In this document: piece after piece, positions 4,346 to 64,000 of the stretch
Numbering within the stretch: position 1 is the stretch's first letter
How the letters are laid out: every line of letters starts with the position of its first letter
Source of the DNA: Eledone cirrhosa
Lineage: Eukaryota
Direction of reading: 5' to 3'
Assembly (NCBI GenBank): GCA_964016885.1
Contig: OZ024748.1
Location: forward strand, 31,496,001-31,560,000
DNA: 64,000 nt
The notes under the pieces: generated by a model
Told to the model about the DNA's origin: nothing
The model's input: the letters and a program-made list of their open reading frames with translations, nothing else
Database searches by the model: none
Position numbers and translations under genes: made by a program

Positions 4346-4424
<79 letters not shown>
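3896..4424. repeat. Interrupted (TA)n microsatellite, representative of dozens of tracts (e.g. 8494-9120, 21886-22256, 27433-27841, 50631-51002, 54874-55487)
   Basis: Direct reading: TA dinucleotide with sporadic TG/CA interruptions. Confidence 0.99.
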
Positions 4425-4427
<3 letters not shown>

Positions 4428-4554
4428 TTGAAATAAAATGAAAACGAAATTTAATTTCTCAATCTTAGTACGGCACTTACTTAAATATAAGTATGTGTGT
4501 ATACGTACATACATATATGTATACAGACGTACAGTAGCATGCATATATATGTAT

Positions 4555-5383
<829 letters not shown>

Positions 5384-5384
5384 T

Positions 5385-6720
5385 AATTATAATGAAATGA
5401 CAGGAGGCTGGATTTGTGTAAATCCTTGAAAGGTTTATTATACTATGATCATTTCAATGACCGGGTTCCGTATGAATCCGGTGATATCATCAGGTATTCG
5501 AAATATAATACGTGAATGTAATAGGTAAAATCCATGGGGCTGAAAATCGAGACCCGAGGGCGACCGCTATTCTGTTCCTTCACCCTCAGCCAGTCGCCCT
5601 GGAGTGACGTGGCTAAATTTTATAGTATGCTACTACCGGTCAGATGAACGAAAACAGAAAGGGATGGGAGCATAAGTTAACGTCGATCTCATGACACAAG
5701 GTAAAAGAAAGAAAGAAAGGAAGGAGAGAGAAGAAGGGGGAAGAAAGAAGAAGAGAAGCCAGGGTTAATGTCAGCTAAAAGAGGAAGGCAACTACTACTG
5801 GTCAGATATAGGCAAGCAAGAGGGGGAAGGAAGATAAGTCTGCGGGAGGAAGACAGGAGGAGGGGAGAAGAGAAGGAAGGGAAGAGAGAAGTAGAAAAGT
5901 AAGGGTTGATGGCTACAAGAAGGAAGATAGAAAGAAAGAGGGAGAAAGGTCGATATTAATGTCAGACCACAGTCAAGCCAGGAGTGGCGCGAGAAAATGT
6001 TCACAGGGACACGCATCTTAGCAGAGGTGAATATATTGGGAGTCAGTGTGTTACAGCGTTTAGACTTTTAGGATGAAGTTAAAAAAATTAATAATCAATA
6101 TTCAATATTAAAGAGGTTAGAAAATTTAAAGTTCAACAGTTTAACATTTAATTATATAATAGTTCCGATTTGTTCTGTAATTTAAAGGTACTATGTGGCG
6201 GTTAAAACACCGGCCGCGCCCCGGGCCCCATGGCGAACTAAGCCACGCCGAGTATGGGAGTTCAGTGTGAGTTATACATGCCCAGAAGTATAGGGTAGCC
6301 ATTTAGTTAATTCAGTGCAGTACAATACAGGTTATGGTCCAGTCCGTGGAGTTTCGTCAAAGTTCGGATATTCTGTGAGGGGAGTAGCAAAGGGCCAGGC
6401 GAAAGCACCGGGTAGCCAAAGTTCGAATTGTGGTTAGATATATTCAGTCCCATGCCGCTGTTGATTATTACATTTTGAAGTGCTCAACATTTCAGGAGCG
6501 TTATTTATTGGCTATAATCATAGTATAATAAACCTTTCAAGGATTTACACAAATCCAGCCTCCTGTCATTTCATTATAATATTTAACTCCGTAATAGCAC
6601 CACCAACTACAAAAACAAAGACGGTTGAACTGCTTTACGTTGAGTACTCTCTATATTATTGCATTACGATTGACCATACGGAATAGACCAGCTCTATACA
6701 GTGGTGAACCTCAAACCTGA
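5385..6720. mobile_element. Family C remnant: pseudo-LTR + purine-rich putative 3' UTR (minus) joined to an inverted pseudo-LTR piece (6517-6720, plus)
   Basis: Homology to 1660-2010; inverted arrangement typical of PLE insertions; no coding remnant seen. Confidence 0.6.
5440..5497 (-). ncRNA. Type I hammerhead ribozyme (family C, copy 2)
   Basis: Identical to 1851-1908. Confidence 0.75.
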
Positions 6721-6748
6721 ATATATAAATATATATATATATATGACA

Positions 6749-8580
<1,832 letters not shown>

Positions 8581-8977: not shown

Positions 8978-10018
<1,041 letters not shown>

Positions 10019-10026
10019 ATTTCATA

Positions 10027-10339: not shown

Positions 10340-11290
10340 TATAATATATAAGATCAAAAGATGGTTAAAAGAGTTCCATGTATTTTATTATGCGCATTTC
10401 ACAAACAAATATCATCATGCAATAACATTTGCGTTTTCGTCAGATAAAATAGGGAGACATGATATGAAGGTTAAAACACACTTGTGAATAGTGCAGTTTT
10501 AAATCAACATATGAAAAGTAGTTTTAGATTGATGTGTGATATTGGGCGGGGGGAGGGGGTTGAAGGGGGTGGGGTGGAAAGGATGAAAAAGAGGAGGAGG
10601 AGTATGAGGAAGGATGAGATAGGAGGAGAGACGGGTGATAGAGAGAGAGAGATAGCTTTTATAACTGAGAAAAATATATTGTTTTACATAGAGAAGTTGA
10701 AAAACCGTTGGAAGATAATATATAAATTAAAAGAATTTGAAAATTAACGAAGAGAAAAATTTAGAATAATGTTAAGTTAAGGTTTGAATATTTAAGGGTT
10801 TAATAATATGTGCGATGAAAAGAAATTGTTAATATGTATTAAGAATAATATTTAAGGGTTTAATAATATGTGCGATGGAAATAAATTGTTGACATGTATT
10901 ATTAAAAAAATATAAAAATATAGCAATAGTAATGTAAGTAAGGATATATTGTGAAAGAAGTAGATGATTGGATGAATAAGTGTAATATGTATAAGTTAGA
11001 TGAGCATGAAAGGGAGAAAAAATAATGAATTGAGGATGAATAATCTAACGTCAAAAAAATGTTTATGTTTACGAAGGATTTTTTCAAGGTGATATAAAGT
11101 AAGAATATATTGTGCTGTGTAATAATTGTTTCTACGTTAGGCACAATGATAATTGAGAAGTATCTAGGAAGAAAAGGTACAGATTAGGGGTTAGAAATTA
11201 AAAGAAAAAGGAAAAAAGAAAAGAAAAAAGAAAAAAAGAAAGAAAGGGAAGTGATAAATAGGAGTGATATAGAATGAGTTACTAGTATTA
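10336..11290 (-). mobile_element. Inverted 3' UTR + pseudo-LTR of PLE A1
   Basis: Reverse complement of ~17775-18790; intact hammerhead at 10381-10451 (-). Confidence 0.9.
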
Positions 11291-11329
11291 ATGTATATAT
11301 ATATGTATATATATATGTATATCTATATG

Positions 11330-11366
<37 letters not shown>

Positions 11367-11479
11367 GTATATATATATGTATATATATGTATATATATAT
11401 ATGTATATATATATATATGTATATATATATGTATATATATGTATATATATATATATATATATATGCATATATATATATG

Positions 11480-11510
<31 letters not shown>

Positions 11511-11512
<2 letters not shown>

Positions 11513-14850: not shown

Positions 14851-15248
14851 TATATATATATATGTATATATATATGTATATATATATATATATATATAAA
14901 ACTACTTTTCATATGTTGATTTAAAACTGCACTATTCACAAGTGTGTTTTAACCTTCATATCATGTCTCCCTATTTTATCTGACGAAAACGCAAATGTTA
15001 TTGCATGATGATATTTGTTTTTAAAATGCGCATAATAAAATACATGGAACTCTTTTAACCATCTTTTGATCTTATATATTATTTATACTCCAGTCCTACA
15101 AACAGTAGAGTGCTACTTATCCGATATCTGCATTGCTTTATTGTACTACAATAAAACTCACCTCCTACATTAACTTGCTCTTTAACGGTTGAGCGCTAAC
15201 TCTCATATTGGATACCTTTTGATGGTCCTTTACCTTTTCTTCTACAAC

Positions 15249-17649
15249 ATGGATTATTACAACATAACCAATTCAACTAAAGACATTCCTATACCTGGTA
15301 AATCGGAATTCACCAAACTTCAAATTGAAAAAACTGACTCCTATGTAAGAAGGCTTAGATGGATAGCTTATTTCTATGACCAGCGCCTAAAAGGGAACTT
15401 CTATACTAAGGAACATAACTTCCTCGATCATCTATTTAATTCTAGAAGAAATCCTCCTTCCAACAAAAATCTAGTGCAATTCGAGGAGGAGTTAACTAAC
15501 ATTATAAAAAATCTTAAATTCAAGAGAAACCCTTACAGAGGACAGGAGCACCTTGTAAATCTCAAGAACACAATTTCAAACCTAAATTCCTCAAAAAATG
15601 TTTTAGTCCACTCTGACAAAACCAATAATTTATATGGTATTTCCAAGGATAACTATAACAGCCTTATCCTAAAGGAACTTATGAAAAAATATCGCAAAAC
15701 CAACCATGCTAATTTAGAATCCATAAACTTTGAAGCTTCTGAGATTATGTCGAAACTTGGCATCGGAAAAAAGACCGAACCATTCCTCCCAAGAACTCCG
15801 AGGATAAATCTCAAGGATCACAAAAACAATTTTCGTACTGAACTACCTGTTAGACTAATCTCCCCCTCTAAATCAGATCTGGGGGTTGTTAGCAAAGCCA
15901 TCTTGGATAGAAGTTCGTTCTAATTGCTCTTCTTTGAACTTAAATTTATGGTTTGGTACTTCTGAAGTGATTGGCTGGTTCAACAAATTGAATAAGAAAA
16001 ATAAACAAAAATGTATTCAATTTGATATTGACAGCTACTATTCTTCTATTTCGCCCTTACTTCTCAACAATGCTCTATCTTTCGCTTACAAATATTCAGA
16101 CATCACCACAGATGAAATTCACATCATTCTCACCGCACGTAAAACTATCCTAGAGTTCAACAATGAATATTGGACCAGAGTTGATACCTCTAACAACTTT
16201 GACATCACAATGGGAGCATCCGATTCATCCCAATTGACAGATTTAATTGGTATCTTTATTTTGAACTCTTTGAATCGGAAAATTCCTCAACTTCGCGGTG
16301 GAATTTATCGTGACGATGGACTCTTTACTATCTTAAATTGCAACATAGTTAACCTTAATATTATTAAGAACAATATACGTAATCTCTTTAACCAACATAA
16401 CTTAAAAATTGAATTTGATAACAGCATCAAACTAGCTAATTTCTTGGATGTATCTCTTAATCTTGACACTGGCCTATATTACCCTTACCATAAAAACAAT
16501 GAGAACCTAAATTATGTTAATTTTAAATCTAACCACCCTACCAATATTAAGAATGCTATAGTTAGTAATATTTGAAAAATAATATCTAACCTATCTTCTA
16601 ATAAAAACATCTTTTATGCTAACGCCAATTACTATAATAACGCGCTTTCTAAAGCTAGTTATCCTGATAAAATCAAATATAGTAAAGAAACAAATTCTAG
16701 AAGATCTTACAGTAGAATAATTAATCATGATCATTCCAATAACTTTAATAAAAGACCTAGATACAAAAACATAATCTGGTATAATGCTCCTTTCTCCATC
16801 TCTATTAATAATAATATTCCTAAATTATTCTTTAGTGCCTTAAATAAATGCTTCCCTCCCTCACATATCTATAGTAAAATATTTAACAAACACACTATAA
16901 AATTTTCCTATTCGACCTCCTCCAATATCTCCAACATTATCTCTAAACACAACAATAAAATACTAAATACTAAATCTCTTCCTTCCAACACTGAATATCA
17001 TAATAATAGTAATAGTACTCCCGACGTCATTGTAAACTCTAGGCTAATTTCTGCAAACCTAAATACAACGTCAAACGCAACTTCGCTAAATGTTCTTAAT
17101 CCCATTCTAAATCAAGAAACTATTATTCCTATCGTAAATAACTTCTCCAATCCTTCTATAGATCACTTGTTCACTTGTTCACTAGGTCACTTGTTAATAA
17201 CTCTGTTAATCTCTCTAATCGCAATTGCCCTGTTAAAAATAAATGTCCTCTCAACAACCATTGTCTTGAAAAAAAACTTAATCTACGAATGTAAAGTTAT
17301 AACTGACACCAATTCCTTTACCTATTTTGGCTCCACTTCCACCTCCTTTAAAGCTCGTCTTTATAATCATCATTCGTCTTTTAAATACCAACTTAAAAGA
17401 ACCAACACGGCACTCTCAGAACTCATATGGTTCTTGAAAGACAAAAATATTAACTATAACATCTCTTGGAAGAAGGTTTGTTCTGCTTCTCCATACTTGA
17501 ACAGTTCTCTCTCCAAGACATGCAATCTCTGTTTATGTGAACAATTTACCATTATATCTAATTTAGATTCTATAATAAATAGACGCACTGACTTGTTTTC
17601 TCTCTGCTTGCATAAATTCCACAGAACATTCCATAAAGTATACAGCTAA
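15249..17649 (+). pseudogene. Disrupted PLE RT/GIY-YIG ORF
   Basis: LKDHK, FDIDSYY, MGASDS, YRDDG, FLDV, IYEC..YFGST; frameshift ~15910, stop 16573-16575, further shifts ~17165-17275 relative to intact A2. Confidence 0.92.
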
Positions 17650-18678
17650 TATCTAATACTTTATCAATTTAAAATCGTTTTCTCAAAGGCACATATATAT
17701 ATATACATATATATTTCTTTAAAAATATACCCATCTTTCTACCTTATTTCAATGTTATTTATTATACATTATATAATACTAGTTACTCATTCTATATCAC
17801 TCCTATTTTCTCACTTCCCTTCTTTCTTTTTTCCTTTTTTCTTTTTCTTTTAATTTCTAACCCCTAATCTGTACCTTTTCTTCCTAGATACTTCTCAATT
17901 ATCATTGTGCCTAATGTAGAAACAATTATTACACAGCACAATATATTCTTACTTTATATCACCTTGAAAAAATCCTTCGTAAACATTAAAAATTTTTTAA
18001 ACAGTAAATATTTTTTAAACAGTAAAAATTTTTTAAACAGTAAAAATTTTTTGACATTAGATTATTCATCCTCAATTCATTATTTTTTTCTCCCTTTCAT
18101 GCTCATCTAACTTATACATATTACACTTATTCATCCAATCTTCTACTTCTTTCACAATATATCCTTACTTACATTACTATTGCTATATTTTTATATTTTT
18201 TTAATAATATATATCAACAATTTATTTCCATCCCACATATTATTACACCCTTAAATATTATTCTTAATACATATTAACAATTTCTTTTCATCGCACATAT
18301 TATTAAACCCTTAAATATACAAACCTTAACTTAACATTATTCTAAATTTTTCTCTTCGTTAATTTTCAAATTCTTTTAATTTATATATTATCTTCCAACG
18401 GTTTTTCAACCTCTCTATGTAAAACAATATATTTTTCTGTTATAAAGGCTATCTCTCTCTCTCTATCACCCGTCTCTCCTCCTATCTCATCCTTCCTCAT
18501 GATACTCCTCCCCCTCCACTTTTTACTCTCATCTCCTCCTCTTTTTCATCATCGCCCCGCCACCCTCAACATTTTTTGTCTCCCCCAATATCACACATCA
18601 ATCTAAAACTACTTTTCATATGTTGATTTAAAACTGCACTATTCACAAGTGTGTTTTAACCTTCATATCATGTCTCCC

Positions 18679-18749
18679 TATTTTATCTGACGAAAACACA
18701 AATGTTATTGCATGATGATATTTGTTTGTGAAATGCGCATAATAAAATA
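18679..18749 (+). ncRNA. Type I hammerhead ribozyme in PLE A pseudo-LTR (other copies 10381-10451 -, 14972-15042 +, 35426-35496 -, 39356-39426 -, 39818-39888 +)
   Basis: TATTTTAT-CTGACGA-[long helix II]-GAAA-TGCGCA-TA-ATAAAATA; 8-bp helix I, palindromic helix III. Confidence 0.85.
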
Positions 18750-18887
18750 CATGGAACTCTTTTAACCATCTTTTGAACTTATATATTATTTATACTCCAG
18801 TCCTACAAACTGTAGAGTGCTACTTATCCGATATCTGCTGCATTGCTTTATTGTCCTACAATAAAACTCACCTCCTACATATATATG

Positions 18888-19196: not shown

Positions 19197-21885
19197 GATT
19201 AAGTTAAAGTGTACATCTACATATGTATACGGAAGTATTAGTATGCATATAAATACACACATGTATACATATGTACATGTACTCAGCTTTTCACTAGACA
19301 CTTTACAGTGAGTGTCAGCTAGTCTGTATGTAACCATACAGGCGGACGGGGTTTTAGAGTCATACGAGTTTTCAAGGAAACACATTTCCTCTATTCTCCA
19401 GAGGGCCAGACAGGAATATTGGACTAGTTTCGATGTTATTACATCTCATCAGCAATATTTACCCATCTTCCGGCTTCTCTGGAGAATTGTAAAAGCACAT
19501 ATCGTTATATGCTTTTTCTATGAAAATTAGTAGTGGGTAGACTAATTTGCATAGAACGTGAGTCATTGTACGCACCGGTTCAGCGGAAACGATAAAAACA
19601 AATAACGAAACGAAATTAAATTTCGTTTCGCTTCTAACTCACTTTTGTATGACTGACGCTTAGACAATTAAGTTAAAGTGTACATCTACATATGCATACG
19701 GAAGTATTAGTATGCATATAAATACACACATGTATACATATGTACATGTACTCAGCTTTTCACTAGACACTTTACAGTGAGTGTCAGCTAGTCTGTATGT
19801 AACCGTACAGGCGGACCGGGTATTAGAGTCATACGAGTTTTCAAGGAAACACATTTCCTCTATTCTCCAGAGGGCCAGACAGGAATATTGGACTAGTTTC
19901 GATGTTATTACATCTCATCAGCAATATTTACCCATCTTCCGGCTTCTCTGGAGAATTGTAAAAGCACATATCGTTATATGCTTTTTCTATGAAAATTAGT
20001 AGTGGGTAGACTAATTTGCATAGAACGTGAGTCATTGTACGCACCGGTTCAGCGGAAACGATAAAAACAAATAACGAAACGAAATTAAATTTCGTTTCGC
20101 TTCTAACTCACTTTTGTATGACTGACGCTTAAACAATTAAGTTAAAGTGTACATCTACATATGTATACGGAAGTATTAGTATGCATATAAATACACACAT
20201 GTATACATATGTACATGTACTCAGCTTTTCACTAGACACTTTACAGTGAGTGTCAGCTAATCTGTATGTAACCATACAGGCGGACCGGGTTTTAGAGTCA
20301 TACGAGTTTTCAAGGAAACACATTTCCTCTATTCTCCAGAGGGCCAGACAGGAATATTGGACTAGTTTCGATGTTATTACATCTCATCAGCAATATTTAC
20401 CCATCTTCCGGCTTCTCTGGAGAATTGTAAAAGCACATATCGTTATATGCTTTTTCTATGAAAATTAGTAGTGGGTAGACTAATTTGCATAGAACGTGAG
20501 TCATTGTACGCACCGGTTCAGCGGAAACGATAAAAACAAATAACGAAACGAAATTAAATTTCGTTTCGCTTCTAACTCACTTTTGTATGACTGACGCTTA
20601 AACAATTAAGTTAAAGTGTACATCTACATATGCATACGGAAGTATTAGTATGCATATAAATACACACATGTATACATATGTACATGTACTCAGCTTTTCA
20701 CTAGACACTTTACAGTGAGTGTCAGCTAGTCTGTATGTAACCATACAGGCGGACCGGGTTTTAGAGTCATACGAGTTTTCAAGGAAACACATTTCCTCTA
20801 TTCTCCAGAGGGCCAGACAGGAATATTGGACTAGTTTCGATGTTATTACATCTCATCAGCAATATTTACCCATCTTCCGGCTTCTCTGGAGAATTGTAAA
20901 AGCACAGATCGTTATATGCTTTTTCTATGAAAATTAGTAGTGGGTAGACTAATTTGCATAGAACGTGAGTCATTGTACGCACCGGTTCAGCGGAAACGAT
21001 AAAAACAAATAACGAAACGAAATTAAATTTCGTTTCGCTTCTAACTCACTTTTGTATGACTGAAGCCGGAAGATGGGTAAATATTGCTGATGAGATGTAA
21101 TAACATCGAAACTAGTCCAATATACCTGTCTGGCCCTCTGGAGAATAGAGGAAATGTGTTTCCTTGAAAACTCGTATGACTCTAAAACCCGGTCCGCCTG
21201 TATGGTTACATACAGACTAGCTGACACTCACTGTAAAGTGTCTAGTGAAAAGCTGAGTACATGTACATATGTATACATGTGTGTATTTATATGCATACTA
21301 ATACTTCCGTATACATATGTAGATGTACACTTTAACTTAATTGTTTAAGCGTCAGTCATACAAAAGTGAGTTAGAAGCGAAACGAAATTTAATTTCGTTT
21401 CGTTATTTGTTTTTATCGTTTCCGCTGAACCGGTGCGTACAATGACTCACGTTCTATGCAAATTAGTCTACCCACTACTAATTTTCATAGAAAAAGCATA
21501 TAACGATATGTGCTTTTACAATTCTCCAGAGAAGCTGGAAGATGGGTAAATATTGCTGATGAGATGTAATAACATCGAAACTAGTCCAATATTCCTGTCT
21601 GGCCCTCTGGAGAATAGAGGAAATGTGTTTCCTTGAAAACTCGTATCACTCTAAAACCCGGTCCGCCTGTATGGTTACATACAGACTAGCTGACACTCAC
21701 TGTAAAGTGTCTAGTGAAAAGCTGAGTACATGTACATATGTATACATGTGTGTATTTATATGCATACTAATACTTCCGTATACATATGTAGATGTACACT
21801 TTAACTTAATTGTTTAAGCGTCAGTCATACAAAAGTGAGTTAGAAGCGAAACGAAATTTAATTTCGTTTCGTTATTTGTTTTTAT
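19197..21885. repeat. Family E: 469-bp tandem repeat with one hammerhead per unit (4 units, then ~1.75 inverted units)
   Basis: Exact 469 period; inversion at ~21063; hammerheads at 19415, 19884, 20353, 20822 (-) and 21080, 21549 (+). Confidence 0.95.
21549..21593 (+). ncRNA. Canonical minimal type I hammerhead ribozyme (family E representative)
   Basis: AATATTG-CTGATGA-GATGT(AATA)ACATC-GAAA-CTAG-TC-CAATATT; perfect helices I and II, GUC triplet. Confidence 0.93.
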
Positions 21886-22252: not shown

Positions 22253-22255
22253 TAT

Positions 22256-24811
<2,556 letters not shown>

Positions 24812-24838
24812 GTATATATATATGTATATATATATAAG

Positions 24839-24891
<53 letters not shown>

Positions 24892-24896
24892 GTATA

Positions 24897-24940
<44 letters not shown>

Positions 24941-25218
24941 GGCTGCTCAGCCGTTAATTTTCATAAGGAAAGTATATACTTTCGAACGTTCAACTATCTG
25001 GCAGATGGGTAAACGGTGCTGATGATAGCTAACAAGCTTGAAACTAGTACATCGTTCCTGTGTCAGTGTTGAACAAAAAGGTGACGTGGTTGCCTTAACA
25101 CCGTATGGCATAAATTCAGGCTGTTCGCTTTGTTGACAAACAAACGAACAAAGCGGCCGGCGTTATAATAAACGTAGGCTAAACTGATGCGTGCATATAT
25201 GTATGTATACCTGTATGC

Positions 25219-25292
<74 letters not shown>

Positions 25293-25753
25293 ATATATAT
25301 ATATATGTGCATGCTACTGTACGTCTGTATACATATATGTATGTACGTATACATACATACTTACATTTAAGTAAGTGCCATACTAAGAGTGAGAAATGAA
25401 ATTTCGTTTTCATTTTTTTTCAACTAATCGTTTTCGGTATGCCTGACCGATTTAACTCACTCAATATGCAAATTAGGCTGCTCAGCCGTTAATTTTCATA
25501 AGGAAAGTATATACTTTCGAACGTTCAACTATCTGGCAGATGGGTAAACGGTGCTGATGATAGCTAACAAGCTTGAAACTAGTACATCGTTCCTGTGTCA
25601 GTGTTGAACAAAAAGGTGACGTGGTTGCCTTAACACCGTATGGCATAAATTCAGGCTGTTCGCTTTGTTGACAAACAAACGAACAAAGCGGCCGGCGTTA
25701 TAATAAACGTAGGCTAAACTGATGCGTGCATATATTTATGTGTACATGTATGC

Positions 25754-25825
<72 letters not shown>

Positions 25826-26272
25826 GTGCATGCTACTGTACGTCTGTATACATATATGTATGTACGTATACATACATACTTACATTTAAGTAAGTGCCAT
25901 ACTAAGAGTGAGAAATGAAATTTCGTTTTCATTTTTTTTCAACTAATCGTTTTCGGTATGCCTGACCGATTTAACTCACTCAATATGCAAATTAGGCTGC
26001 TCAGCCGTTAATTTTCATAAGGAAAGTATATACTTTCGAACGTTCAACTATCTGGCAGATGGGTAAACGGTGCTGATGATAGCTAACAAGCTTGAAACTA
26101 GTACATCGTTCCTGTGTCAGTGTTGAACAAAAAGGTGACGTGGTTGCCTTAACACCGTATGGCATAAATTCAGGCTGTTCGCTTTGTTGACAAACAAACG
26201 AACAAAGCGGCCGGCGTTATAATAAACGTAGGCTAAACTGATGCGTGCATATATGTATGTGTACCTGTATGC

Positions 26273-26312
<40 letters not shown>

Positions 26313-26774
26313 ATATATATATATATGTGCATGCTACTGTACGTCTGTATACATATATGTATGTACGTATACATACATACTTACATTTAAGTAAGTGCCA
26401 TACTAAGAGTGAGAAATGAAATTTCGTTTTCATTTTTTTTTCAACTAATCGTTTTCGGTATGCCTGACCGATTTAACTCACTCAATATGCAAATTAGGCT
26501 GCTCAGCCGTTAATTTTCATAAGGAAAGTATATACTTTCGAACGTTCAACTATCTGGCAGATGGGTAAACGGTGCTGATGATAGCTAACAAGCTTGAAAC
26601 TAGTACATCGTTCCTGTGTCAGTGTTGAACAAAAAGGTGATGTGGTTGCCTTAACACCGTATGGCATAAATTCAGGCTGTTCGCTTTGTTGACAAACAAA
26701 CGAACAAAGCGGCCGGCGTTATAATAAACGTATTCTAAACTGATGCGTGCATATATGTATGTGTACCTGTATGC

Positions 26775-26873
<99 letters not shown>

Positions 26874-27318
26874 CATGCTACTGTACGTCTGTATACATAT
26901 ATGTATGTACGTATACATACATACTTACATTTAAGTAAGTGCCATACTAAGAGTGAGAAATGAAATTTCGTTTTCATTTTTTTTTCAACTAATCGTTTTC
27001 GGTATGCCTGACCGATTTAACTCACTCAATATGCAAATTAGGCTGCTCAGCCGTTAATTTTCATAAGGAAAGTATATACTTTCGAACGTTCAACTATCTG
27101 GCAGATGGGTAAACGGTGCTGATGATAGCTAACAAGCTTGAAACTAGTACATCGTTCCTGTGTCAGTGTTGAACAAAAAGGTGACGTGGTTGCCTTAACA
27201 CCGTATGGCATAAATTCAGGCTGTTCGCTTTGTTGACAAACAAACGAACAAAGCGGCCGGCGTTATAATAAAAGTAGGCTAAACTGATGCGTGCATATAT
27301 GTATGTGTACCTGTATGC

Positions 27319-27360
<42 letters not shown>

Positions 27361-27432
27361 ATATATATATATATATGTGCATGCTACTGTACGTCTGTAT
27401 ACATATATGTATGTACGTATACATACATACTT
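24941..27432 (+). repeat. Family D tandem array, ~5 units of 502-544 bp, each with a hammerhead and an internal (TA)n
   Basis: Hammerheads start at 25012, 25547, 26066, 26568, 27112; length variation is almost all in the internal TA tract. Confidence 0.95.
25547..25591 (+). ncRNA. Minimal type I hammerhead ribozyme (family D representative)
   Basis: AACGGTG-CTGATGA-tAGCT(AACA)AGCTt-GAAA-CTAG-TA-CATCGTT; 7-bp helix I with one G.U, GUA triplet. Confidence 0.88.
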
Positions 27433-27551: not shown

Positions 27552-27842
<291 letters not shown>

Positions 27843-27907
27843 TCTTTTACCTGTTTTAGCCACCCGGCTGAGGCCATGCTGGGGCACCGCCCTTGTTGCT
27901 ACACATT

Positions 27908-33099: not shown

Positions 33100-33148
33100 A
33101 GTATGTATGTATACGTACATACATATATGTATACAGACGTACAGTAGC

Positions 33149-33185
<37 letters not shown>

Positions 33186-33517
33186 CAGGCACACATATAT
33201 ACATGTACGTATCAATTTAGCCAATATTTATTATAACATTCGCTTTGTTCGTTTGTAAACAAACGGACAGCCTGATTTATGCCGTACGGTGTTAAGGCAA
33301 CCACGTCACTTTTTTGTTCAACACTGACACAGGAACAATGTACTAGTTTCAAGCTTGTTAGCTATCGTCAGCACCGTATACCCTTCTGCCAGATGGTTGA
33401 ACGTTCGAAAGTAAGTATATACTTTCCATATGAAAATTCACGGCTGAGCAAACGAACAAAGCGAATGTTATAATAAATATTCGCTAAACTGATACGTACA
33501 TGTATATATGTGTGCTG

Positions 33518-33611
<94 letters not shown>

Positions 33612-33937
33612 CATGCTATTGTACGTCTGTATACATATATGTATGTACGTACATGCATACTTACATTTAAGTAAGTGCCGTACTAAGAGTGAGAAATGAA
33701 ATTTCGTTTCATTCTATTCCAACTTATCGTTTTCGGTGCGCCTGGCCGACTGAACTCACTCGATATGCAAATTAGGCTGCTCAGCCGTTAATTTTCATAA
33801 GGAAAGTATATACTTTCGATCGTTCAACCATCTGGCAGAAGGGTATACGCTGCCGACGATAGCTAACAAGCTTGAAACTAGTACATCGTTCCTGTGTCAG
33901 TGTTGAACAAAAAGGTGACGTGGTTGCCTTAACACCG

Positions 33938-33981
<44 letters not shown>

Positions 33982-34090
33982 CATGCTACTGTACGTCTAT
34001 ACATATATGTATGTACGTATACATACATACTTACATTTAAGTAAGTGCCGTACTAAGAGTGAGAAATGAAATTTCGTTTCATTCTATTCC
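33100..34090. repeat. Diverged family D units, divergent orientation
   Basis: Hammerhead with CTGACGA at 33334-33378 (-); core-mutated CCGACGA copy at 33846-33890 (+); inversion ~33450. Confidence 0.85.
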
Positions 34091-34525: not shown

Positions 34526-34927
<402 letters not shown>

Positions 34928-35070
34928 TACACTCCTCGTTTGTTCGTGTTTCCACTACAGAATCCCTACCAACCTGTCGAGTCACCTTAACGTATGTTGA
35001 GAACTTTCCTCACAACTTGTTCTACCAAGCTTTGGAATACTCCTAATAACTGAATATATATATATATATA

Positions 35071-35291: not shown

Positions 35292-36516
35292 ATGTAGGAG
35301 GTGAGTTTTATTGTAGTACAATAAAGCAATGCAGATATCGGATAAGAAGCACTCTACAGTTTGTGGGACTGGAGTATGCATAATATAAGATCAAAAGATC
35401 AAAAGATGGTTAAAGGAGTTCAATATATTTTATTATGCGCATTTCAAAAACAAACATCATCAAACAATAACATTTGTGTTTTCATCAGATAAAACAGGAG
35501 AACATGATATGAAGGCTAAAAAAACACTTGTTGATAGTGCAGTTTTAAATCAACATATGAAAAGTGGTTTTAGATTGATGTGTGATATTGGGAAAAATAT
35601 TTTATTTAGAGAGGGGGGGAGAGAAAAGGATGAAAAGGGAAGGAGATGAGAGGGAGAGATGGGTGATAGAGAGAAAGAGATAGTTTTTATAACAGAGAGG
35701 AGATATATTTTATATAGAGGGGTTGAAAACCGTTGGAAGATACTGTATAAATTAAAAATTTTGAAAATTAACGAAGGGAGGATATGTGCGAGGAAAAAAT
35801 ATATTATATTTAGGGAGGGGTGGGGGTGGAAAGGATGAAAAAAAGGGGAGGAGATGAGAGTGAAGGTGGAAAGGGAGAGATGGGTGATAGAGAGAAAGAG
35901 ATAGTTTTTATAACTGAGAAAAAGATATAATGTTTTAATATAGAGAGGTTGGGAACCGTTGGAAGATAATGTATAAATTAAAGGAATTTGAAAATTAACG
36001 AAGGGAAATTATGTATGGAGATAGAGAGAAAAAAATAACGAAGGGAGATTATGTATGGAGATAGAGAGAAAAAAATAATAATTGTGGGTGAATATTCAAA
36101 AGGAGAAATGTAGGAATCTTAAAATTAGCAAAGAGAAAATGTTTATGTATAGGATTTGAGAAAAATAATGTGAAGTTAAAGTTTTTATATTGAATTCATA
36201 TGTATTAATAATGAGTTCGTTGATGGGGAGAAAAAAATAATAATAAATTAAGGATGAAATTGAGATTAAAAAGATTTATGATAGAGAGAAAAAATAATAA
36301 TGATTGCGGATGAATACTCAAAATGTCAAAAACAAATGTTATTGTTTTACGAAGAGATATAATGAGGGTGATGAGTAAACGGGTATTATAGAGTGTATAA
36401 TGCCCTTTAAAGTAAGGTAGATGGGTATATTTTAAAGAATATATGAGTATATATTAAAAAATATATAATAATAAATTAAGGATGAAATTGAGATTAAAAA
36501 GATTTATGATAGAGGG

Positions 36517-36551
<35 letters not shown>

Positions 36552-39500
36552 ATAATGATTGCGGATGAATATTCAAAAAGTCAAAAACAAATGTTATTGT
36601 TTTACGAGAAGATAGGATGAGGTAAATGAATAAACGAGTACTATAGAGTGTATAATGCCCTTTAAAGTAAGGTAGATGGGTATATTTTAAAGAGGTGTAT
36701 GTATATGTGCCTTTGAGAAAAGATTCTAAATTGATAAAGAATTGAATATTAACTGTATACTTTGTGAAAAGTTCTATGGAATTTATGCAGGCAGATGGAA
36801 AACAAATCCGAGCGTCTATTTATTATGGATTCTAGGTTAGAGATAATGGTAAATTTTTCATTTAGGCAGAGATTACAGATTTTAGATAGAGAACTGTTCA
36901 AGTACGAGGATGCAGAAGAAATCTTTTTCCAAAAGATGTTATATTTAATGTTTTTGTCTTTTAAGGACCATATGAGTTCTGAGAGAGCAGTGTTAGTTCT
37001 TTTAAGTTTGTATTTGAAAGATGAATGATGATTATAGAGACGAGCTTTAAAAGAGGTGGAAGTGGAGCCAAAATAGGTGAAGGAGTTGGTGCTAGTTATA
37101 ATTTTACATTCATAAATTAAGTTTTTATCGAGGCAATGGTTGTTGAGAGGACATTTATTTTTAATGCGGCAGTTGCAATTAGAGAGATTATTAATGAGTG
37201 ATCTAGTGTTATCTATAGAAGGAATTGGATTGGAGAAGTTGTTTGCGATAGGAATAATAGGAATAATAGTTTCTTGATTTAGAGTTGGATTATGAACATT
37301 TAGCGAAGTTGTGTTTGACGTTGCATTTGGGTTTACAGAAGTTAGCCTAGGGTTTACAATGACGTCGGGAGTACTATTATTGTTATTATGAGATTCAATA
37401 TTGGAAGGAAGAGATTTAGTATTTAATATTTTGTTGTTGTGTTTAGAAATGATGTTGGAAATATTGGAGGATGTAGAATACGAAAATTTAATGGTGTGTT
37501 TGTTAAATATTTTACTATAGATATGTGAGGGAGGGAAGCATTTATTTAAGGCACTAAAAAATAATTTAGGAATATTGTTATTAATAGAGATGGAGAAAGG
37601 AGCATTATACCAGATTATGTTTTTGTATCTAGGTCTTTTATTAAAATTATTGGAATGGTTATGATTAAATATTCTACTGTAAGTTTTCCTAGAATTTGTT
37701 TCTTTATTATATTTGATTTTATCTGGATAGCCAGCTTTAGAAAGTGCGTTATTATAGTAATTGGCGTTAGCATAAAAGATGTTTTTATTAGAAGATATGT
37801 TAGATATTCTATTTCCAATATTATTAACTATAGCATTCTTGATATTGGTAGGATGGTTAGATTTAAAGTTAACATAATTAAGATTCTCATTGTTTTTATG
37901 GTAAGGGTAATATAGGCCAGTGTCAAGATTAAGAGATACATCCAAGAAATTAGCTAGTTTGGTACTATTATCAAATTCAATTTTTAGGTTATGTTGGTTA
38001 AAGAGATTACGTATATTGTTCTTAATAATATTAAGTTTAACTATATTGCAATTTAGGATAGTAAAGAGTCCATCGTCACGATAAATTCCACCGCGAAGTT
38101 GAGGAATTTTCCGACTCAAAGAGTTCAAAATGAAGATACCAATTAAATCAGTCAGTTGGGATGAATCGGATGCTCCCATTGTGATGTCGAAGTTGTTAGA
38201 GGTATCGGCTCTGGTCCAATATTCGTTGTTGAACTCTAGGATGGTTTTACGTGCGGTGAGGATGATGTGAAGTTCATCTGTGGTGATGTCAGAATATTTA
38301 AGTGCGAAAGATAGAGCATTATTGAGAAGTGAAGGCGAAATGGAGGAATAGTAGCTGGCAATATCGAATTGAATAAATTTTAGTTTGTTTTTATTATCCA
38401 ATTTGTTGAACCAGCCAATCACTTCAGAAGTACCAAACCATAAATTTAGGTTTAAAGAAGAGCAATTAGAACTAACCTGTGGGATAATCCTATCCAAGAT
38501 GGCTTTACTAACAACCCCCAGATCAGATTTAGAGGGGGCGATTAATCTAACAGGTAGTTCAGTGCGAAAATTGTTTTTGTGATCCTTGAGATTTATCCTC
38601 GGAGTTCTTGGGAGGAATGGTTCGGTCTTTTTTTCAATGCCAAGTTTTGACATAATCTCATAGGCTTCAAGGTTTATGCATTCTAAATTTTCATGGTTGG
38701 TTTTACGATACTTTTTCCTAAGTTCCTTTAGGATAAGGTTGTTATAATTATCCTTGGAAATACCATATAGGTTATTGGTTTTGTCAGAGTGGACTAAAAC
38801 ATTTTTTGAGGAATTTAGGTTAGAGATTGTGTTCTTGAGATTTACAAGGTGCTCTTGTCCTTTGTAAGGGTATCTCTTGAATTTAAGATTTTTTATAATT
38901 TTAGTTAATTCTTCCTCGAATTGTGCTAGATTTTTGTTGGAAGGAGGATTTCGTCTGGAATTAAAAAGATGATCGAGGAAGTTGTGTTCTTTGGTATGAA
39001 AGTTCCCTTTTAGGCGCTGGTCATAGAAATAGGCTGTCCATCTAAGTCTTCTTACGAAGGAGTCAGTTTTTTCAATAAGAAGTTTGGTGAATTCAGATTT
39101 ACCAGGTATAGGAATGTCTTTAGTAGAATTGGTTATGTTGTAATAATCCATGTTGTAGAAGAAGAGGTGAAGGACCATCAAAAGGTATCCAATATGAGAG
39201 TAAGCGCTCAACCGTTAAGGAGCAAGTAAATGTAGGAGGTGAGTTTTATTGTAGTACAATAAAGCAATGCAGATATCGGATAAGAAGCACTCTACAGTTT
39301 GTGGGACTGGAGTATGCATAATATAAGATCAAAAGATGGTTAAAGGAGTTCAATATATTTTATTATGCGCATTTCAAAAACAAACATCATCAAACAATAA
39401 CATTTGTGTTTTCATCAGATAAAACAGGAGAACATGATATGAAGGCTAAAAAAAACACTTGTTGATAGTGCAGTTTTAAATCAACATATGAAAAGTGGTT

Positions 39501-39923
39501 TTAGATTGATGTGTGATATTGGGAAAAATATTTTATTTAGAGAGGGGGGGAAAATTTTTTAATTTATACAGTATCTTCCAACGGTTTTCAACCCCTCTAT
39601 ATAAAATATATCTCCTCTCTGTTATAAAAACTATCTCTTTCTCTCTATCACCCATCTCTCCCTCTCATCTCCTTCCCTTTTCATCCTTTTCTCTCCCCCC
39701 CTCTCTAAATAAAATATTTTTCCCAATATCACACATCAATCTAAAAACACTTGTTGATAGTTGATTTAAAACTGCACTATCAACAAGTGTTTTTTTAACC
39801 TTCATATCATGTTCTCCTGTTTTATCTGATGAAAACACAAATGTTATTGTTTGATGATGTTTGTTTTTGAAATGCGCATGATAAAATATATTGAACTCCT
39901 TTAACCATCTTTTGATCTTATAT

Positions 39924-39927
<4 letters not shown>
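35292..39927 (-). mobile_element. Full-length PLE A2 with direct pseudo-LTRs and an inverted 5' pseudo-LTR
   Basis: Direct repeats ~35292-35620 and ~39231-39550; inverted copy ~39551-39927; three hammerheads; TA at both ends. Confidence 0.95.
36749..39151 (-). CDS. Intact PLE reverse transcriptase / GIY-YIG endonuclease (~800 aa from MDYYN), Hydra-clade-like
   Basis: Uninterrupted ORF: SDKTNN, LKDHK, FDIASYY, MGASDS, YRDDG, FLDV, WYNAPF, CNC-x5-CP, IYEC-x9-YFGST, CNLC..E, CLH. Confidence 0.93.
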   Translation of the reverse strand: MDYYNITNSTKDIPIPGKSEFTKLLIEKTDSFVRRLRWTAYFYDQRLKGNFHTKEHNFLDHLFNSRRNPPSNKNLAQFEEELTKIIKNLKFKRYPYKGQEHLVNLKNTISNLNSSKNVLVHSDKTNNLYGISKDNYNNLILKELRKKYRKTNHENLECINLEAYEIMSKLGIEKKTEPFLPRTPRINLKDHKNNFRTELPVRLIAPSKSDLGVVSKAILDRIIPQVSSNCSSLNLNLWFGTSEVIGWFNKLDNKNKLKFIQFDIASYYSSISPSLLNNALSFALKYSDITTDELHIILTARKTILEFNNEYWTRADTSNNFDITMGASDSSQLTDLIGIFILNSLSRKIPQLRGGIYRDDGLFTILNCNIVKLNIIKNNIRNLFNQHNLKIEFDNSTKLANFLDVSLNLDTGLYYPYHKNNENLNYVNFKSNHPTNIKNAIVNNIGNRISNISSNKNIFYANANYYNNALSKAGYPDKIKYNKETNSRKTYSRIFNHNHSNNFNKRPRYKNIIWYNAPFSISINNNIPKLFFSALNKCFPPSHIYSKIFNKHTIKFSYSTSSNISNIISKHNNKILNTKSLPSNIESHNNNNSTPDVIVNPRLTSVNPNATSNTTSLNVHNPTLNQETIIPIIPIANNFSNPIPSIDNTRSLINNLSNCNCRIKNKCPLNNHCLDKNLIYECKIITSTNSFTYFGSTSTSFKARLYNHHSSFKYKLKRTNTALSELIWSLKDKNIKYNIFWKKISSASSYLNSSLSKICNLCLNEKFTIISNLESIINRRSDLFSICLHKFHRTFHKVYS

Positions 39928-40018
<91 letters not shown>

Positions 40019-40031
40019 GTGTGTGTGTGTA

Positions 40032-41824: not shown

Positions 41825-42006
41825 ATACATATAGACACACATATATATATATATACACACATACATATACACACACACATATATATACATATATATATAT
41901 ATATACACATATATATATATACATATACGCATACATATATACACATATATATACACACATATATATATATACACATATAGACACATACATATACACACAC
42001 ACACAC

Positions 42007-42109
<103 letters not shown>

Positions 42110-42155
42110 TACACATACATACACACACATATACACATATATACATATATATATA

Positions 42156-45100
42156 TATTTCGTTTCTGAATTTGTTTAGCAAGATTCTTTATCTGAAATC
42201 GTGTGTTGAAACCGATATTGTTATACTTTGGGAGGGTCATGTTGCCAATAAGAAACACACGCACCAGCTGCTTTCATTTAAATTTATTATAATAAATTTA
42301 TAAATTTAGGAATTTATAAATTTCTGGTTGGTTGGTTGGTTCCACAACCAGATAGTTGTTTATATATTGTCAACATCACTACTTACAATTAAGGACAAAT
42401 TGAAAACACACACACACATAGAACAAACAACCAACCGGTAACATGTAAATAAACAAATAAATAAACGAATATAAAGACACACAGACACCCGGATGCGGCG
42501 CATGCGCACACTGAGCACACAACACACACACAGAAACAAAATGGCGTAGGATAGAACAAAGGAGAGGCACAAAAACAAAGAAAAGAATCCCCAGTCACTG
42601 AAGAGGTCACAGAATGTGTGACGAAAGAACTTTGACAATATATAAACAACTATCTGGTTGTGGAACCAACCAACCAACCAGAAATTTATAAATTTATAAA
42701 TTCCTAAATTTATTATAATAAATTGAAATGAATGCAACTGGTGCGTGTGTTTCTTATTGGCAACATGACCCTCCCAAAGTATAACAATATCGGTTTCAGC
42801 ACACGATTTCAGATAAAGAATCTTGCTAAACAAATTCAGAAACGAAATATCGTAAGCCTTAGCCAGGCTAACAAGATATTGAAAACCACCATGTTCTGTT
42901 GTCTACGAAAAACCATAACATCTCGACAACTACACTTCATAAAAGAATGTGCCTCGTCCCGAGTTTACACCAACACCATCAACACCGACGTAAGAAGATT
43001 ACAACTCACCAAAAAACAAGCAGATAGGCTAAAACGAACACTAATTCTAAACATAAAAAAGAAGATCTATAGAGAATTAAGTGATCAAGAAAAACATAAG
43101 CGTAACCTAATACAAGAAATAACTAGTATCACCATACCAAGAGAGAAACTAATATTTATAAGCCTTATACGTCCTGAAGAACAGTACATTGCTCAAGAAT
43201 ATGATTAGCACTTTAACAAAAAACTAAAAAGTGTCTTAAGCAGATAAAACTAAAACTAAATCAGGATACTGTAGAGAATACCAATAGATATCCCGACAAA
43301 ATTGACGGTATAAATATGGCCGACACCTCATTAACAGATGAGTTCAACAACAACAACAACACAAATATATACGGCAACACGGCAATAGACCCTGATGAAT
43401 TATCTGTATTACTTCTACCACCGAAATGTGCGACATTCAAGAATGTAAATATGATTAGTTGTCTGTCAGAAATAGAAAAATCATTTACAAAATTACGTTG
43501 GAGCCTCAAAAACAAAAACAAAAACAAAAGTAACAACATACGTACACACATATACAACACACATCCCAACAACAACAGACACACAGACACAAACAACAAT
43601 AACAACAACACACACACCAACAATAATATCATACTCAGAAACAACAACAACAGACACGCAGACACAAACAACAATAACAACACACACAACAATAATAACA
43701 CACACGGAGACAACAACAACAACAACACACATCAACAACAGCACACATCAACAACAACAACACACACACATTCAATGCTTCTCACCACCACAACAATCTT
43801 AACAAACACACAGACACAGAAAACAAGTAATGACAGTAGCACAGAAATCACAGAAATAAGGGAAAGTAATAGGATTAAAAGGAGAAGGGAGACTATGGAC
43901 AAAGAAAATAACCAAGACGAACCCACAGACACACAAAATAGAGTAGATAATAACAATGAGCCAGTGGAAAGAGACAAGAGTAATTATGAGAGACATAGAA
44001 ACAACCATGAGGCTGTTGGTTGAAATAGAAATAGAAACAACACAACTAACAATAACAATAGCACTAGTACACATAAAGCAGCAGCCTGGAACTCTACTTT
44101 TTATAATCCCTCCGATAAGTCGTTCGACCTGCGACGAGTCCACGCTACGACTTTACCATTTAACAAACGCACGCAATTGCCGTCGCAGGTCGATGAACAA
44201 ACAGAAGCACAATTTAGTATAGCTAAATCCGAACTTAGAAATATTATAGAACAGTATAGCAAGAAGCATAATAGAATGGAGGCCCAGCAACTGGGAGAAA
44301 AATCTGCAAATGGCTTGCGTAAGCTCATGCAGCGCTCGCGTAATGGAGAGATAGCATGCTTTCCAACAGACAAGTCTGGCAGAATGTCGGTTGACAGCCT
44401 GCCAAACTACATCCAGGCAATGCAACCCCACATCACTAACACAAGAGAGGTAACACCGCAGGAGCATGAGGATAGAGAAAAAGCCCTCAATGCCCATATG
44501 GTGATGTGGACGAATATAATGCAGCCCAACAAAAGGACTGCCAACAACTTCCAGACCTGGAACAATGACGTGCCGGCGTTGTATGGGCTTCAAAAAGACC
44601 ATAAAACGGGCAGTGACCCTGTCACCGGACCACCAACAAGACCAGTCTGTGGAGCTAACATTGCTAGTAACTACAGACTGTCCTACTTCCTCTCCCTGAT
44701 CATACGCCCCATCATTGAAATGTTCCCAGATGTATGTGACAGCACGGAGGACCTCCTCAGCAGAATCGACGAGAGTAACCGATCTAGGGACCTAACAAAC
44801 TGTATAATAGGTAGTATGGATGTTGTGTCCCTGTATCCATCTATTGACGTGGATTTTGCTGTGGAGAAATGCGTAGAAATGATCAGTGAGAGCAATGTTG
44901 AGTTCCGTGGGATTGATACCAGTGAGCTGGGACTCCTACTTAAACTTACCTATAGTAATAATTACCTAGACACATATGACCTTAGCAACCTGTGCCCTAC
45001 AAGACCAGCAAGAGGCAGACCACCTACCATTACCTCAATGGCCAAGAAAACCCACACAGATAGATGGAACGGGTGGACCAGAGCCAAACGGACACCCGAA

Positions 45101-46848
45101 AACCACGATGAACTGAAGAAAATGATTGCACATGCGGTAGGAGCCAGCATAGAACTAACCCTTAAGGAACATATGTTCAAATTTAATGGAAAAACATATG
45201 CCCAAGAGGAAGGAGCAGCCATTGGTGTTAGCATTGCAGGCGACATAGCTAACTTATTCATGGTATGGTGGGACAGTAGACTTAAACTTAAAGAACAATT
45301 AGAAGATCCCTTAACCCTGATAATGTACTCCCGCTACGTTGATGATATAAACATCGTAGTTAAAACACCCCCACTAGAGAACAGTCAGGAATTAGAGAAA
45401 TACAATGGAAAGCATCCAGCAAATAGCTAACTCCATCCACCAGAGTATTAGAGTTACTATAGACTACCCAAGCAAACACCCCAACCATCGATTACCTGTA
45501 CTAGACACAGAGCTCTGGTTAGATACCATTAATAACAAAAGAAAAAACCTCCATTCCCATTATTCCAAACCCATGACTTCCAAATATCTGATCCACCGAA
45601 ACTCAGCTGTTTCGGACCATACCAAAATCAACATACTGATTGCAGATTTGGTACGGGTGATGAGAAACGTGTCCCGCATGTGCAACCCCGAAGAACGAGA
45701 GAGACACATACAACACTTCATCCACCGTATGCAGTTCTCTGGTTACAATCAGAGAGATAAAATCAGAGTGTATAGAGGAGCCAGAACCAAATGGGAAAAA
45801 ATGGGAAATAATGACACAAATGGGACCTGCCCCTTGTATAGGAGCAAATTTTGGAATAGAATAGAAAGAACTAGGAATAAGGCTAATAGAATAAACTCAT
45901 GGTATGATAGCAATAAATACCAGAGTATAATGTTCATCGATACAACCCCTAGAGGTGAATTAGCTTACAAATTTAGAAGAGCCCTAGATAAACATAAACT
46001 CAATATTAAGATAGTAGAAAGACCAGGTACCTCCGTAAAAACACTTATTAGCAAAACATACTCTTTTCAAAGACCCCCCTGTATAGATAAGAAATGTATA
46101 ACCTGTAAAATAAGCCCCCATATTAACTGTAAAACTAGAAATGTAGTGTATAGCATAAGATGTACTGAAGGACAATGTAGAGACAAAAATATAGTGTACA
46201 TAGGTGAGACAGCTCGTAGTGTAGGGGAACGGATAAATGAACACTGGCGAGACCTTCAAGATAGTAAAGAATCATCTGTACTCTACCAACATGCTAAAGT
46301 AGTACATAAGGGAAAATTAGAGAACATAGAAATAAAAATAGAATCTACACACAGAAAAGACGCAATGTTTAGACAAATCACAGAGGCAATAAACATAAAA
46401 GAATTACAACCAAAATTAAATAGAAAATATGAGTGGAACAGCAACATCACAACTTACAATTAAGGACAAAATGAAAACACACAACCAACTGGTAACATGT
46501 AAATAAACAAATAAATAAACGAATATAAACACACACAGACACCCGGATGCGGCGCATGCGCACACTGAGCACACAACACACACACAGAAACAAAATGGCG
46601 TAGGACAGAACAAAGGAGAGGCACAAAAACAAAGAAAAGAATCCCCAGTCACTGAAGAGGTCACAGAATGTGTGACGAAAGAACTTTGACAATATATAAA
46701 CAACTATCTGGTTGTGGAACCAACCAACCAACCAGAAATTTATAAATTTATAAATTCCTAAATTTATAAATTTATTATAATAAATTGAAATGAAAGCAAC
46801 TGGTGCGTGTGTTTCTTATTGGCAACATGACCCTCCCAAAGTATAACA

Positions 46849-46850
<2 letters not shown>
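42156..46850 (+). mobile_element. Full-length PLE family B with direct pseudo-LTRs and an inverted 5' pseudo-LTR piece
   Basis: Direct repeats ~42371-42790 and ~46441-46848; inverted 42156-42370; hammerheads at 42593 and 46647. Confidence 0.93.
42765..46463 (+). pseudogene. Disrupted PLE B ORF (N-terminal domain, Asn/Thr/His low-complexity linker, RT, GIY-YIG)
   Basis: DELSVLLLPPK, PTDKSG, YGLQKDHK, PTRPV, SMDVVSLYPSI, QEEGAAIG, RYVDDI, LPVLD, VYSIRC..YIGETAR; stops ~43208-43245 and frameshifts ~43730-44170 and ~45400. Confidence 0.9.
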
Positions 46851-46925
<75 letters not shown>

Positions 46926-54192: not shown

Positions 54193-54210
54193 ATATATAT
54201 ATATATATAC

Positions 54211-59076: not shown

Positions 59077-59085
59077 TATTTCTAT

Positions 59086-64000
<4,915 letters not shown>

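Follow-up and report, generated by a model that had tools for sequence, protein, structure and literature searches.

Penelope-type insertion junctions of hammerhead retrozymes beside a young Hydra-clade Penelope-like element in Eledone cirrhosa

We analyzed a stretch of 64,000 nucleotides (nt) from Eledone cirrhosa (assembly GCA_964016885.1, contig OZ024748.1, positions 31,496,001 to 31,560,000 of the forward strand), hereafter the window. It is a mosaic of retroelements with (TA)n tracts between them, and it holds a Penelope-like element (PLE), A2, together with two families of hammerhead repeats, D and E. A preliminary description had proposed A2 as the helper of D and E. Our reading is that A2 is a recently inserted full-length PLE of the Hydra clade, and that D and E were moved by PLE machinery, most likely not by that of the A2 family. 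We assign this reading a probability of about 0.65. All coordinates are positions in the window.

A2 is a complete Hydra-type PLE on the minus strand (35292..39926) with an inverted 5' arm, and (TA)n adjoins it at both ends. The 5' pseudo-long terminal repeat (pLTR; 39230..39551, minus strand) is 5'-truncated and contains an internal end 1 (39318), an internal end 2 (39230) and a hammerhead core (39418-39372). It is followed on the same strand by an open reading frame (ORF; 36749..39151) of 800 residues with reverse transcriptase (RT) and GIY-YIG endonuclease (EN) domains. The 3' untranslated region (UTR; 35621..36748) has internal duplications and a T run of 33 nt (36517-36549). The 3' pLTR (35292..35620) includes an 88-nt tail and joins (TA)n at end 2 (35292). 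Its type I hammerhead (35428..35494) was assigned from motif and predicted fold, with a core at 35488-35442 and predicted cleavage after 35434. The inverted arm (39552..39926, plus strand) is joined head to head and is tail-less at end 1; in its hammerhead the cleavage position (39880) is occupied by G. As in other PLEs with an endonuclease, there is a single ORF with a telomerase-like RT and a GIY-YIG EN, the pLTRs are partially in tandem, the inverted arm is 5'-truncated, only one end is tailed, and a predicted self-cleaving hammerhead lies in the pLTR.

The ORF had been described as unbroken, and indeed no stop codon was found from 39151 to 36749. On the minus strand it encodes the RT motifs DKT (38785-38777), QFD (38371-38363) and YRDD (38083-38072), followed by a low-complexity linker (37411-37178), a CxCx5C motif (37177-37151) and the GIY-YIG EN (37126-36755). 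An alignment of 18 rows, comprising A2 and 17 of the 21 relatives found, showed that the catalytic positions are kept. D263, YRDD357-360, Y680, Y693-G695, R704, H708 and N778 were invariant and E765 nearly so. The closest database relatives were 28-43% identical across long stretches. A Pfam search of the A2 protein returned no family. TERT was the top fold match of the predicted model (predicted local distance difference test, 76.7), and the neighbours in the ESM Atlas carry HTH_animal/GIY-YIG. With the A2 protein as single query for related loci, 126 pattern stretches were obtained and none was confirmed.

The direct pLTRs (39230-39551 and 35292-35620) had been called near-identical. They align with 321 matches, no substitution and two indels, and the inverted arm (39552-39926) shows six substitutions over 374 nt. 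A sister copy, A1 (14898..18880, plus strand), ends at end 2; a deletion of 11 nt and a premature stop codon disrupt its ORF, which is about 91% identical to that of A2. Comparison of the two ORFs gave a ratio of nonsynonymous to synonymous divergence (dN/dS) of 0.14 (dS 0.286, dN 0.041). In one sequencing-run organism (organism A), 24 of 31 variant sites in the ORF were synonymous, among the 40 sites listed of 101. Judged from the intact ORF, the pLTR identity and the purifying selection, A2 is a young, intact and potentially active element, as had been suggested. In organism A, 6371 contigs aligned to the A family, 1907 of them at an identity of at least 99%, and 30 of 30 bins were covered. 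Loose ends in (TA)n were located at 39230 in 25 records and at 39331 in 46, so that both 3' ends of A (see below) are seen again in this organism. Along the ORF, sequencing depth fell off towards the 5' end, a pattern that 5' truncation would be expected to produce. The depth over the pLTR (39230-39551), which does not equal copy number, exceeded that over the 5' end of the ORF some hundred-fold. Fragments consisting of the pLTR alone may serve as non-autonomous partners of the A family itself. A further 5'-truncated 3' fragment of the family, A3 (10340..11290, minus strand), ends at end 1.

Diagnostics of the Hydra clade are DKT, a CxCX5C linker, no CCHH, CxxC and CxH motifs, no GxKF/Y and an RWK motif, and nearly all of its elements insert in (TA)n (Craig et al. 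2021, PMC8557442). A2 shows the DKG to DKT change (DKT123) and no GxKF/Y match, and RWT37 stands at the aligned RWK column. Its CxCX5C linker occurs without CX2-5CxxC and without CCHH; CxxC and CxH surround the conserved E and N (residues 759-765 and 778-789), and the insertion is into (TA)n. Compared by eye, the motif order is the same as in Hydra-1_Obim and Hydra-1_Amil. The former, from Octopus bimaculoides, is already on record (PMC8557442). A2 shares with these elements the DKT motif, the linker, the (TA)n insertion and the pLTR hammerhead. It differs in having RWT for RWK, YFG for YIG, about 75 additional residues inserted in the linker, a long 3' UTR, a unit of about 3.9 kb compared with generally <3 kb, a long helix II and the 88-nt tail. 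In a tree with database relatives, A2 grouped with two other families of the window and family B stood apart in a distant clade; the named Hydra, Neptune and Nematis references were compared with A2 by eye, outside the tree. By its motifs A2 is assigned to the Hydra clade as a new and otherwise ordinary family.

D was taken as a unit of 362 bp plus (TA)n (e.g. 25360-25878) and E as a unit of 469 bp (19198-21885), which we infer to be the repeats meant in the preliminary description. In the window, these two are the hammerhead repeats whose palindromic helix III measures 6 nt. Each is arranged in tandem, and every non-coding unit contains a single type I hammerhead. The window has 14 cleavage motifs in D and 7 in E, and the longest ORFs starting with ATG have only 85 (D) and 64 (E) residues. 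Homology between D and E extends across most of the unit (alignment score 65 vs 19.8 +/- 2.1), and in an alignment of four rows two-sided change was seen at 12 of the 69 predicted pairs, with compensated pairs in helices I and II. Rfam gave a weak HH9 match on E. The predicted D and E circles are 69% paired. On these features D and E are classed as non-LTR retrozymes, related non-coding hammerhead repeats. In E (19198..21885), four minus-strand units that stop at end 1 are joined head to head to 1.7 plus-strand units, and the latter stop at end 2 with a tail of 75 nt. D forms a tandem array (24940..27431, plus strand) that has an internal (TA)n in every unit and ends at end 1. It also forms a head-to-head composite (33102..34090), with the minus arm at end 1 and the plus arm ≤7 nt from end 2, and two more composites within 4423..8496 (4423/7724, split by later insertions into internal (TA)n, and 7751/8496).

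Tandem non-coding units, a type I hammerhead, highly paired predicted circles and PLEs as proposed helpers are likewise reported for metazoan non-LTR retrozymes (PMC7229834; 10.64898/2026.07.22.740005). D and E differ from these in their units of 469-540 nt with internal (TA)n or a purine-pyrimidine hairpin and in their visible PLE tail and inversion junctions, and the units do not come from neighbouring pLTRs. Invertebrate retrozymes have further been described as species-specific, whereas D spans 16 organism labels. It was present in 20 of 24 listed sequencing runs from 15 studies, with a word share of 0.34-0.76. None of the listed runs with D was an RNA run, which speaks neither for nor against its expression. 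The D/E pattern had no match in metagenome contigs and none in viral contigs. Given the 16 labels, D (25360-25721) appears unusually conserved or transferred for a retrozyme. D and E share a conserved octamer, ATGCAAAT, at a distance of about 90-100 nt upstream of their hammerheads (e.g. 25466 and 21456). It lies within a predicted stem, and 13 of its 15 matches in the window fall in D/E units and none in the termini of A, B or F. The octamer may be a promoter of the small nuclear RNA type; an octamer promoter of this kind is attributed to newt satellite 2, which our literature searches did not confirm.

The evidence for PLE-type insertion comes from the junctions. Every family has two 3' ends in the ribozyme sense, spaced by 88 nt in A, 60 in B, 65 in D, 75 in E, 137 in F and 90 in G. 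Where the 3' side of a D/E copy meets flanking (TA)n, the junction is ≤7 nt from one of two sites that are homologous in D and E; this holds for all nine such junctions, while each unit offers 33-35 TAT/ATA sites. This count excludes three junctions that are not in (TA)n (59077, 62007 and 63118) and an end within internal (TA)n (around 6768), which we interpret as belonging to an arm that was interrupted and resumes at 4554-4423. Moreover, each of the nine head-to-head composites in the window (G, F, A2, two of B, E and three of D) pairs one tailed with one tail-less arm. If the ends were chosen independently, the chance of discordant arms would be 0.002 for nine of nine, and 0.06 for the four of four in D and E alone. 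A tail at one end only is known from PLEs (PMC8557442). In the Poseidon element PAc of Anolis, the tail marks two internal RT start sites, and both strands are primed (Frangieh et al. 2024, PMC11167929). PAc is thereby alike in its two internal starts, which leave the tail on some ends, and in that both strands of AT-rich DNA are cut and extended. It belongs to another clade and its starts are inside the ORF, whereas those of A2 and B are upstream of it. The discordant two-site junctions of D and E therefore point to insertion by a PLE-type reaction, and judged by these junctions the two retrozymes were very probably mobilized by PLEs.

By analogy with PAc (PMC11167929), the A2 protein would bind its own RNA near the junction of pLTR and ORF, nick (TA)n on both strands and start reverse transcription at two internal sites. 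The two starts would yield one tailed and one tail-less arm, head to head. A PLE enzyme acting in trans would copy tandem transcripts or self-cleaved circles of D and E by recognizing a structured two-start domain within their unit, and some arrays would later have been copied at the DNA level. A common preference for (TA)n, which is also present within D, would explain why all these families are co-located.

The preliminary description had presented A2 and D/E as an autonomous/non-autonomous pair. Movement of D and E by PLE machinery agrees with the two-site ends and the discordant arms, but A2 as the partner is not supported. Sense alignment of the D/E termini with those of A2 revealed no similarity (p 0.23-1.0), nor did comparison of tail with tail (p 0.42, 0.86 and 0.71), and the predicted tail folds of A2 and D/E differ. 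The (TA)n target and the inverted geometry are indeed shared, but the same insertion signature is equally present in B, F and G, and is thus unspecific. Adjacency to (TA)n was likewise rejected as evidence of partnership; the ends of B, F, G and the RTE- and CR1-like elements show it too.

A similar result was obtained for the hammerheads, which had been said to have the same design in A2 and D/E. The termini of A2 contain three hammerhead cores (39418 and 35488 on the minus strand, 39826 on the plus strand). Rfam detected no hammerhead at A2, and these cores are based on inspection of motif and fold. Hammerheads are not known to cleave with G at the cleavage position, which bears on the inverted copy. 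Type I architecture and a palindromic helix III are common to A2 and D/E, and families B and F of the window show the palindromic helix III as well. However, A2 has a helix II of at least 12 bp, a helix III palindrome of 8 nt and an AUA site, and D/E have a helix II of 4 bp, a palindrome of 6 nt and GUA/GUC sites. Type I with palindromic helix III is generic among metazoan PLE hammerheads (PMC4209133), for which dimer cleavage is expected. A2 is of this type, but has an A-U pair in place of the usual G10.1-C11.1 and an all-A/U helix I. The helix III strands of A and D/E do not pair (+0.3 kcal/mol, vs -4.8 for D:E). Because the palindrome is general and the strands are unpaired, the shared design is not evidence of partnership, and the palindromic helix III was rejected as a sign of it.

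The distribution of the families also disfavours A2 as partner, D being far more widespread than the A2 family. Stretches of A2 were mapped in 4 of the 24 sequencing runs (organisms A, B, C and G), that is, in 3 of the 15 other organisms holding D. At an identity of at least 80%, the A2 family was unseen in all three. Organism B gave four partial contigs, organism C none, and organism G five partial reads of 12.8 million (1938 million letters), none of them on the pLTR. Abundance of D/E without these PLEs had been named in advance as a sign against the partnership, and it was found in part, given the 16 labels of D. A match of the D/E junctions to RTE-type target-primed reverse transcription or to DNA-level amplification had been named likewise. 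A simple-repeat 3' tail of RTE type was seen on both RTE copies in the window and on no D/E copy, and DNA-level copying explains some D copies. Taken together, the wider distribution of D and the lack of shared initiation-region sequence suggest that the helper of D and E, a PLE, is most likely not specifically one of the A2 family.

Several points weigh against our reading. The two-site windows were set after seeing the data, in one window of 64 kb. Of the D/E junctions, three end in sequence other than (TA)n, and a further one is ambiguous. The tails of PAc measure 30-40 bp, compared with 60-137 nt in the window families (PMC11167929). Contigs cannot prove the absence of A2, for organism G the raw reads came from a different run than the one containing D, and the short partial A2 matches may be distant Hydra relatives. 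A 30-nt antisense match of D to the 5' UTR of A had p 0.016 and was reached by 0 of 88 control tiles; it is absent in E (p 0.52), was one of 124 tests and is only a weak lead. Finally, the divergence was 0% for A2, 0.3% for the D array, 0.8% for the E arms, 1.7-3.7% for the B arms and 2.1-4.4% for the older D composites. A2, the D array and the E arms are thus of similar age, and all B copies in the window are broken and more diverged. The ages mildly favour the A family as helper.

Several other origins of D and E were weighed. They could be pLTR-derived remnants of a PLE family outside the window that still mobilizes them, a reading that we consider possible, if tentative. D and E show the full anatomy of a pLTR plus tail, and 31 recently active PLE families are reported in Octopus vulgaris (PMC13282606). 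In Xenopus, 24 of 57 retrozyme families match known transposable elements, nearly all of them at PLE termini (10.64898/2026.07.22.740005). However, no such parent was found, the D/E pattern being without match in metagenome and viral contigs, and no copy in the window runs from end 2 into an ORF.

It is likewise possible, if tentative, that the B family is the helper or ancestor and that D and E mimic its initiation motif. B has a C-terminal CCHH endonuclease and is Neptune/Nematis-like. One and the same motif at end 2 of B is the top tail match both for D (14 of 16 nt, p 0.014-0.015) and for E (10 of 10 nt, p 0.047). The end-2 site is followed by CG in D, E and B but not in A, and the tail lengths are alike (60 nt in B vs 65-75 in D/E). 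A relative with 64% identity, the nearest named protein, is annotated in Octopus vulgaris. On the other hand, the motif is post hoc, short and AT-rich, the whole termini gave no significant match (p 0.23-0.61), and the motif coincides with end 2 in B, whereas in D/E it precedes that end by 20-25 nt. The B copies in the window are also broken and older.

With similar reserve, D and E may be regarded as a free-standing RNA parasite, and not as what remains of some single pLTR, that has its own structured two-start domain, a (TA)n target hairpin and possibly an octamer promoter, and that uses several PLE clades in turn. If so, D and E would persist nearly unchanged across many species while their helpers turn over, and their junctions would be direct genomic proof of twin-primed copying of retrozymes by PLEs.

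We consider it unlikely that the A family is the working helper through structure-based or promiscuous recognition, with other Hydra families serving elsewhere. A2 has the sole intact PLE ORF in the window, its age overlaps that of the youngest D/E arrays, and its family is abundant and young in organism A. The near-exclusive (TA)n insertion of Hydra elements (PMC8557442), the antisense match and, by eye, a layout of the D hammerhead like that of published Hydra-clade hammerheads fit as well. Sense homology is lacking, as are similar predicted tail folds, and the A2 family was not seen in the three other D-holding organisms examined. The window moreover contains B and no fewer than two additional families of Hydra type.

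Spread of D and E chiefly by DNA-level amplification or by RTE or CR1 enzymes is very unlikely; copied junctions and the (TA)n adjoining RTE and CR1-like copies speak for it, but neither the conserved pair of end sites nor the discordance of the arms, seen in composites that are independent of each other, can arise in this way, and D has no terminal similarity to the 3' ends of RTE or CR1. The B-(TA)n-D junction is repeated four times with identical microsatellite interruptions, and 22854-24094 differs from 59080-60321 by only 0.4%. On this evidence, part of the D/E copy number in the window is attributed to DNA-level copying. The duplicate of the junction is followed by tandem units of B fragment, (TA)n and D (59080..64000, plus strand). 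Relative to 22854-25860, this region (59080-64000) appears as a recent duplication followed by a tandem of about 1.1 kb (B pLTR fragment, (TA)n and D fragment), and the tandem unit bears two different hammerheads.

The question of which enzyme copies animal retrozymes dates from their definition. PLEs were proposed as helpers in 2020 (Cervera and de la Pena, PMC7229834), and a preprint argued for them from co-occurrence and pLTR homology in Xenopus (Li et al. 2026, 10.64898/2026.07.22.740005); its main text does not mention "tail", "junction" or mollusc. Published support for PLEs consists of such co-occurrence and pLTR homology. The D/E junctions supplement this with a mechanistic signature, namely a pair of fixed starts and a single tailed arm in each inverted pair, which can be counted genome-wide and which names exact RNA positions. 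We found no report of tail or inversion junctions of retrozymes in the literature, although subscription papers, Repbase/Dfam, the O. vulgaris repeat library and preprint supplements may describe D/E or their ends. The partnership of retrozymes and PLEs has already been proposed in print, and the interest of the window lies in this junction evidence rather than in A2. A2 provides an intact enzyme of the Hydra clade, for which we met no biochemistry in the literature consulted, and A2 and B are contrasting enzyme candidates for the copying of D/E.

The window holds further elements. B is a full-length, frameshifted PLE of another clade (42155..46852, plus strand) with a CX4CxxC linker, a CCHH EN and a 60-nt tail; further copies lie at 22254-24529, 52543-54194 and 59080-60663. 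At least three Hydra-type ORF families are present and group together. More broken Hydra-type families were seen at 48853-50549, 51005-52549 and 3149-3894, and the two tested were 33-44% identical to A2. F and G have no ORF. F (5386-6720 and 1660-2013) represents the 3' part of a PLE and carries a hammerhead of its own and a 137-nt tail. F and another repeat (4556-5156) are apparently inserted into a D unit at its internal (TA)n, and D would thus provide landing sites. G (153-1432) is non-coding and has the full PLE geometry with tandem, inverted arm and 90-nt tail; no hammerhead was found in it by motif and no ribozyme by Rfam. Many Rfam microRNA matches in the window were rejected as (TA)n artefacts. 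Three long interspersed nuclear elements, which we take to be two RTE-like copies and one CR1/L2-like copy, lie at 11288-14847, 40018-41834 and 27842-32779. One RTE-like copy is interrupted by (TA)n and one has a PHD-like finger. We also observed an element with 274-bp direct repeats in (TA)n (9120-10022), a long-hairpin element (34650-35053), an AT-rich satellite with inversions (56113-58900) and a short element that by eye resembles a transfer RNA-derived short interspersed nuclear element (2153-2358).

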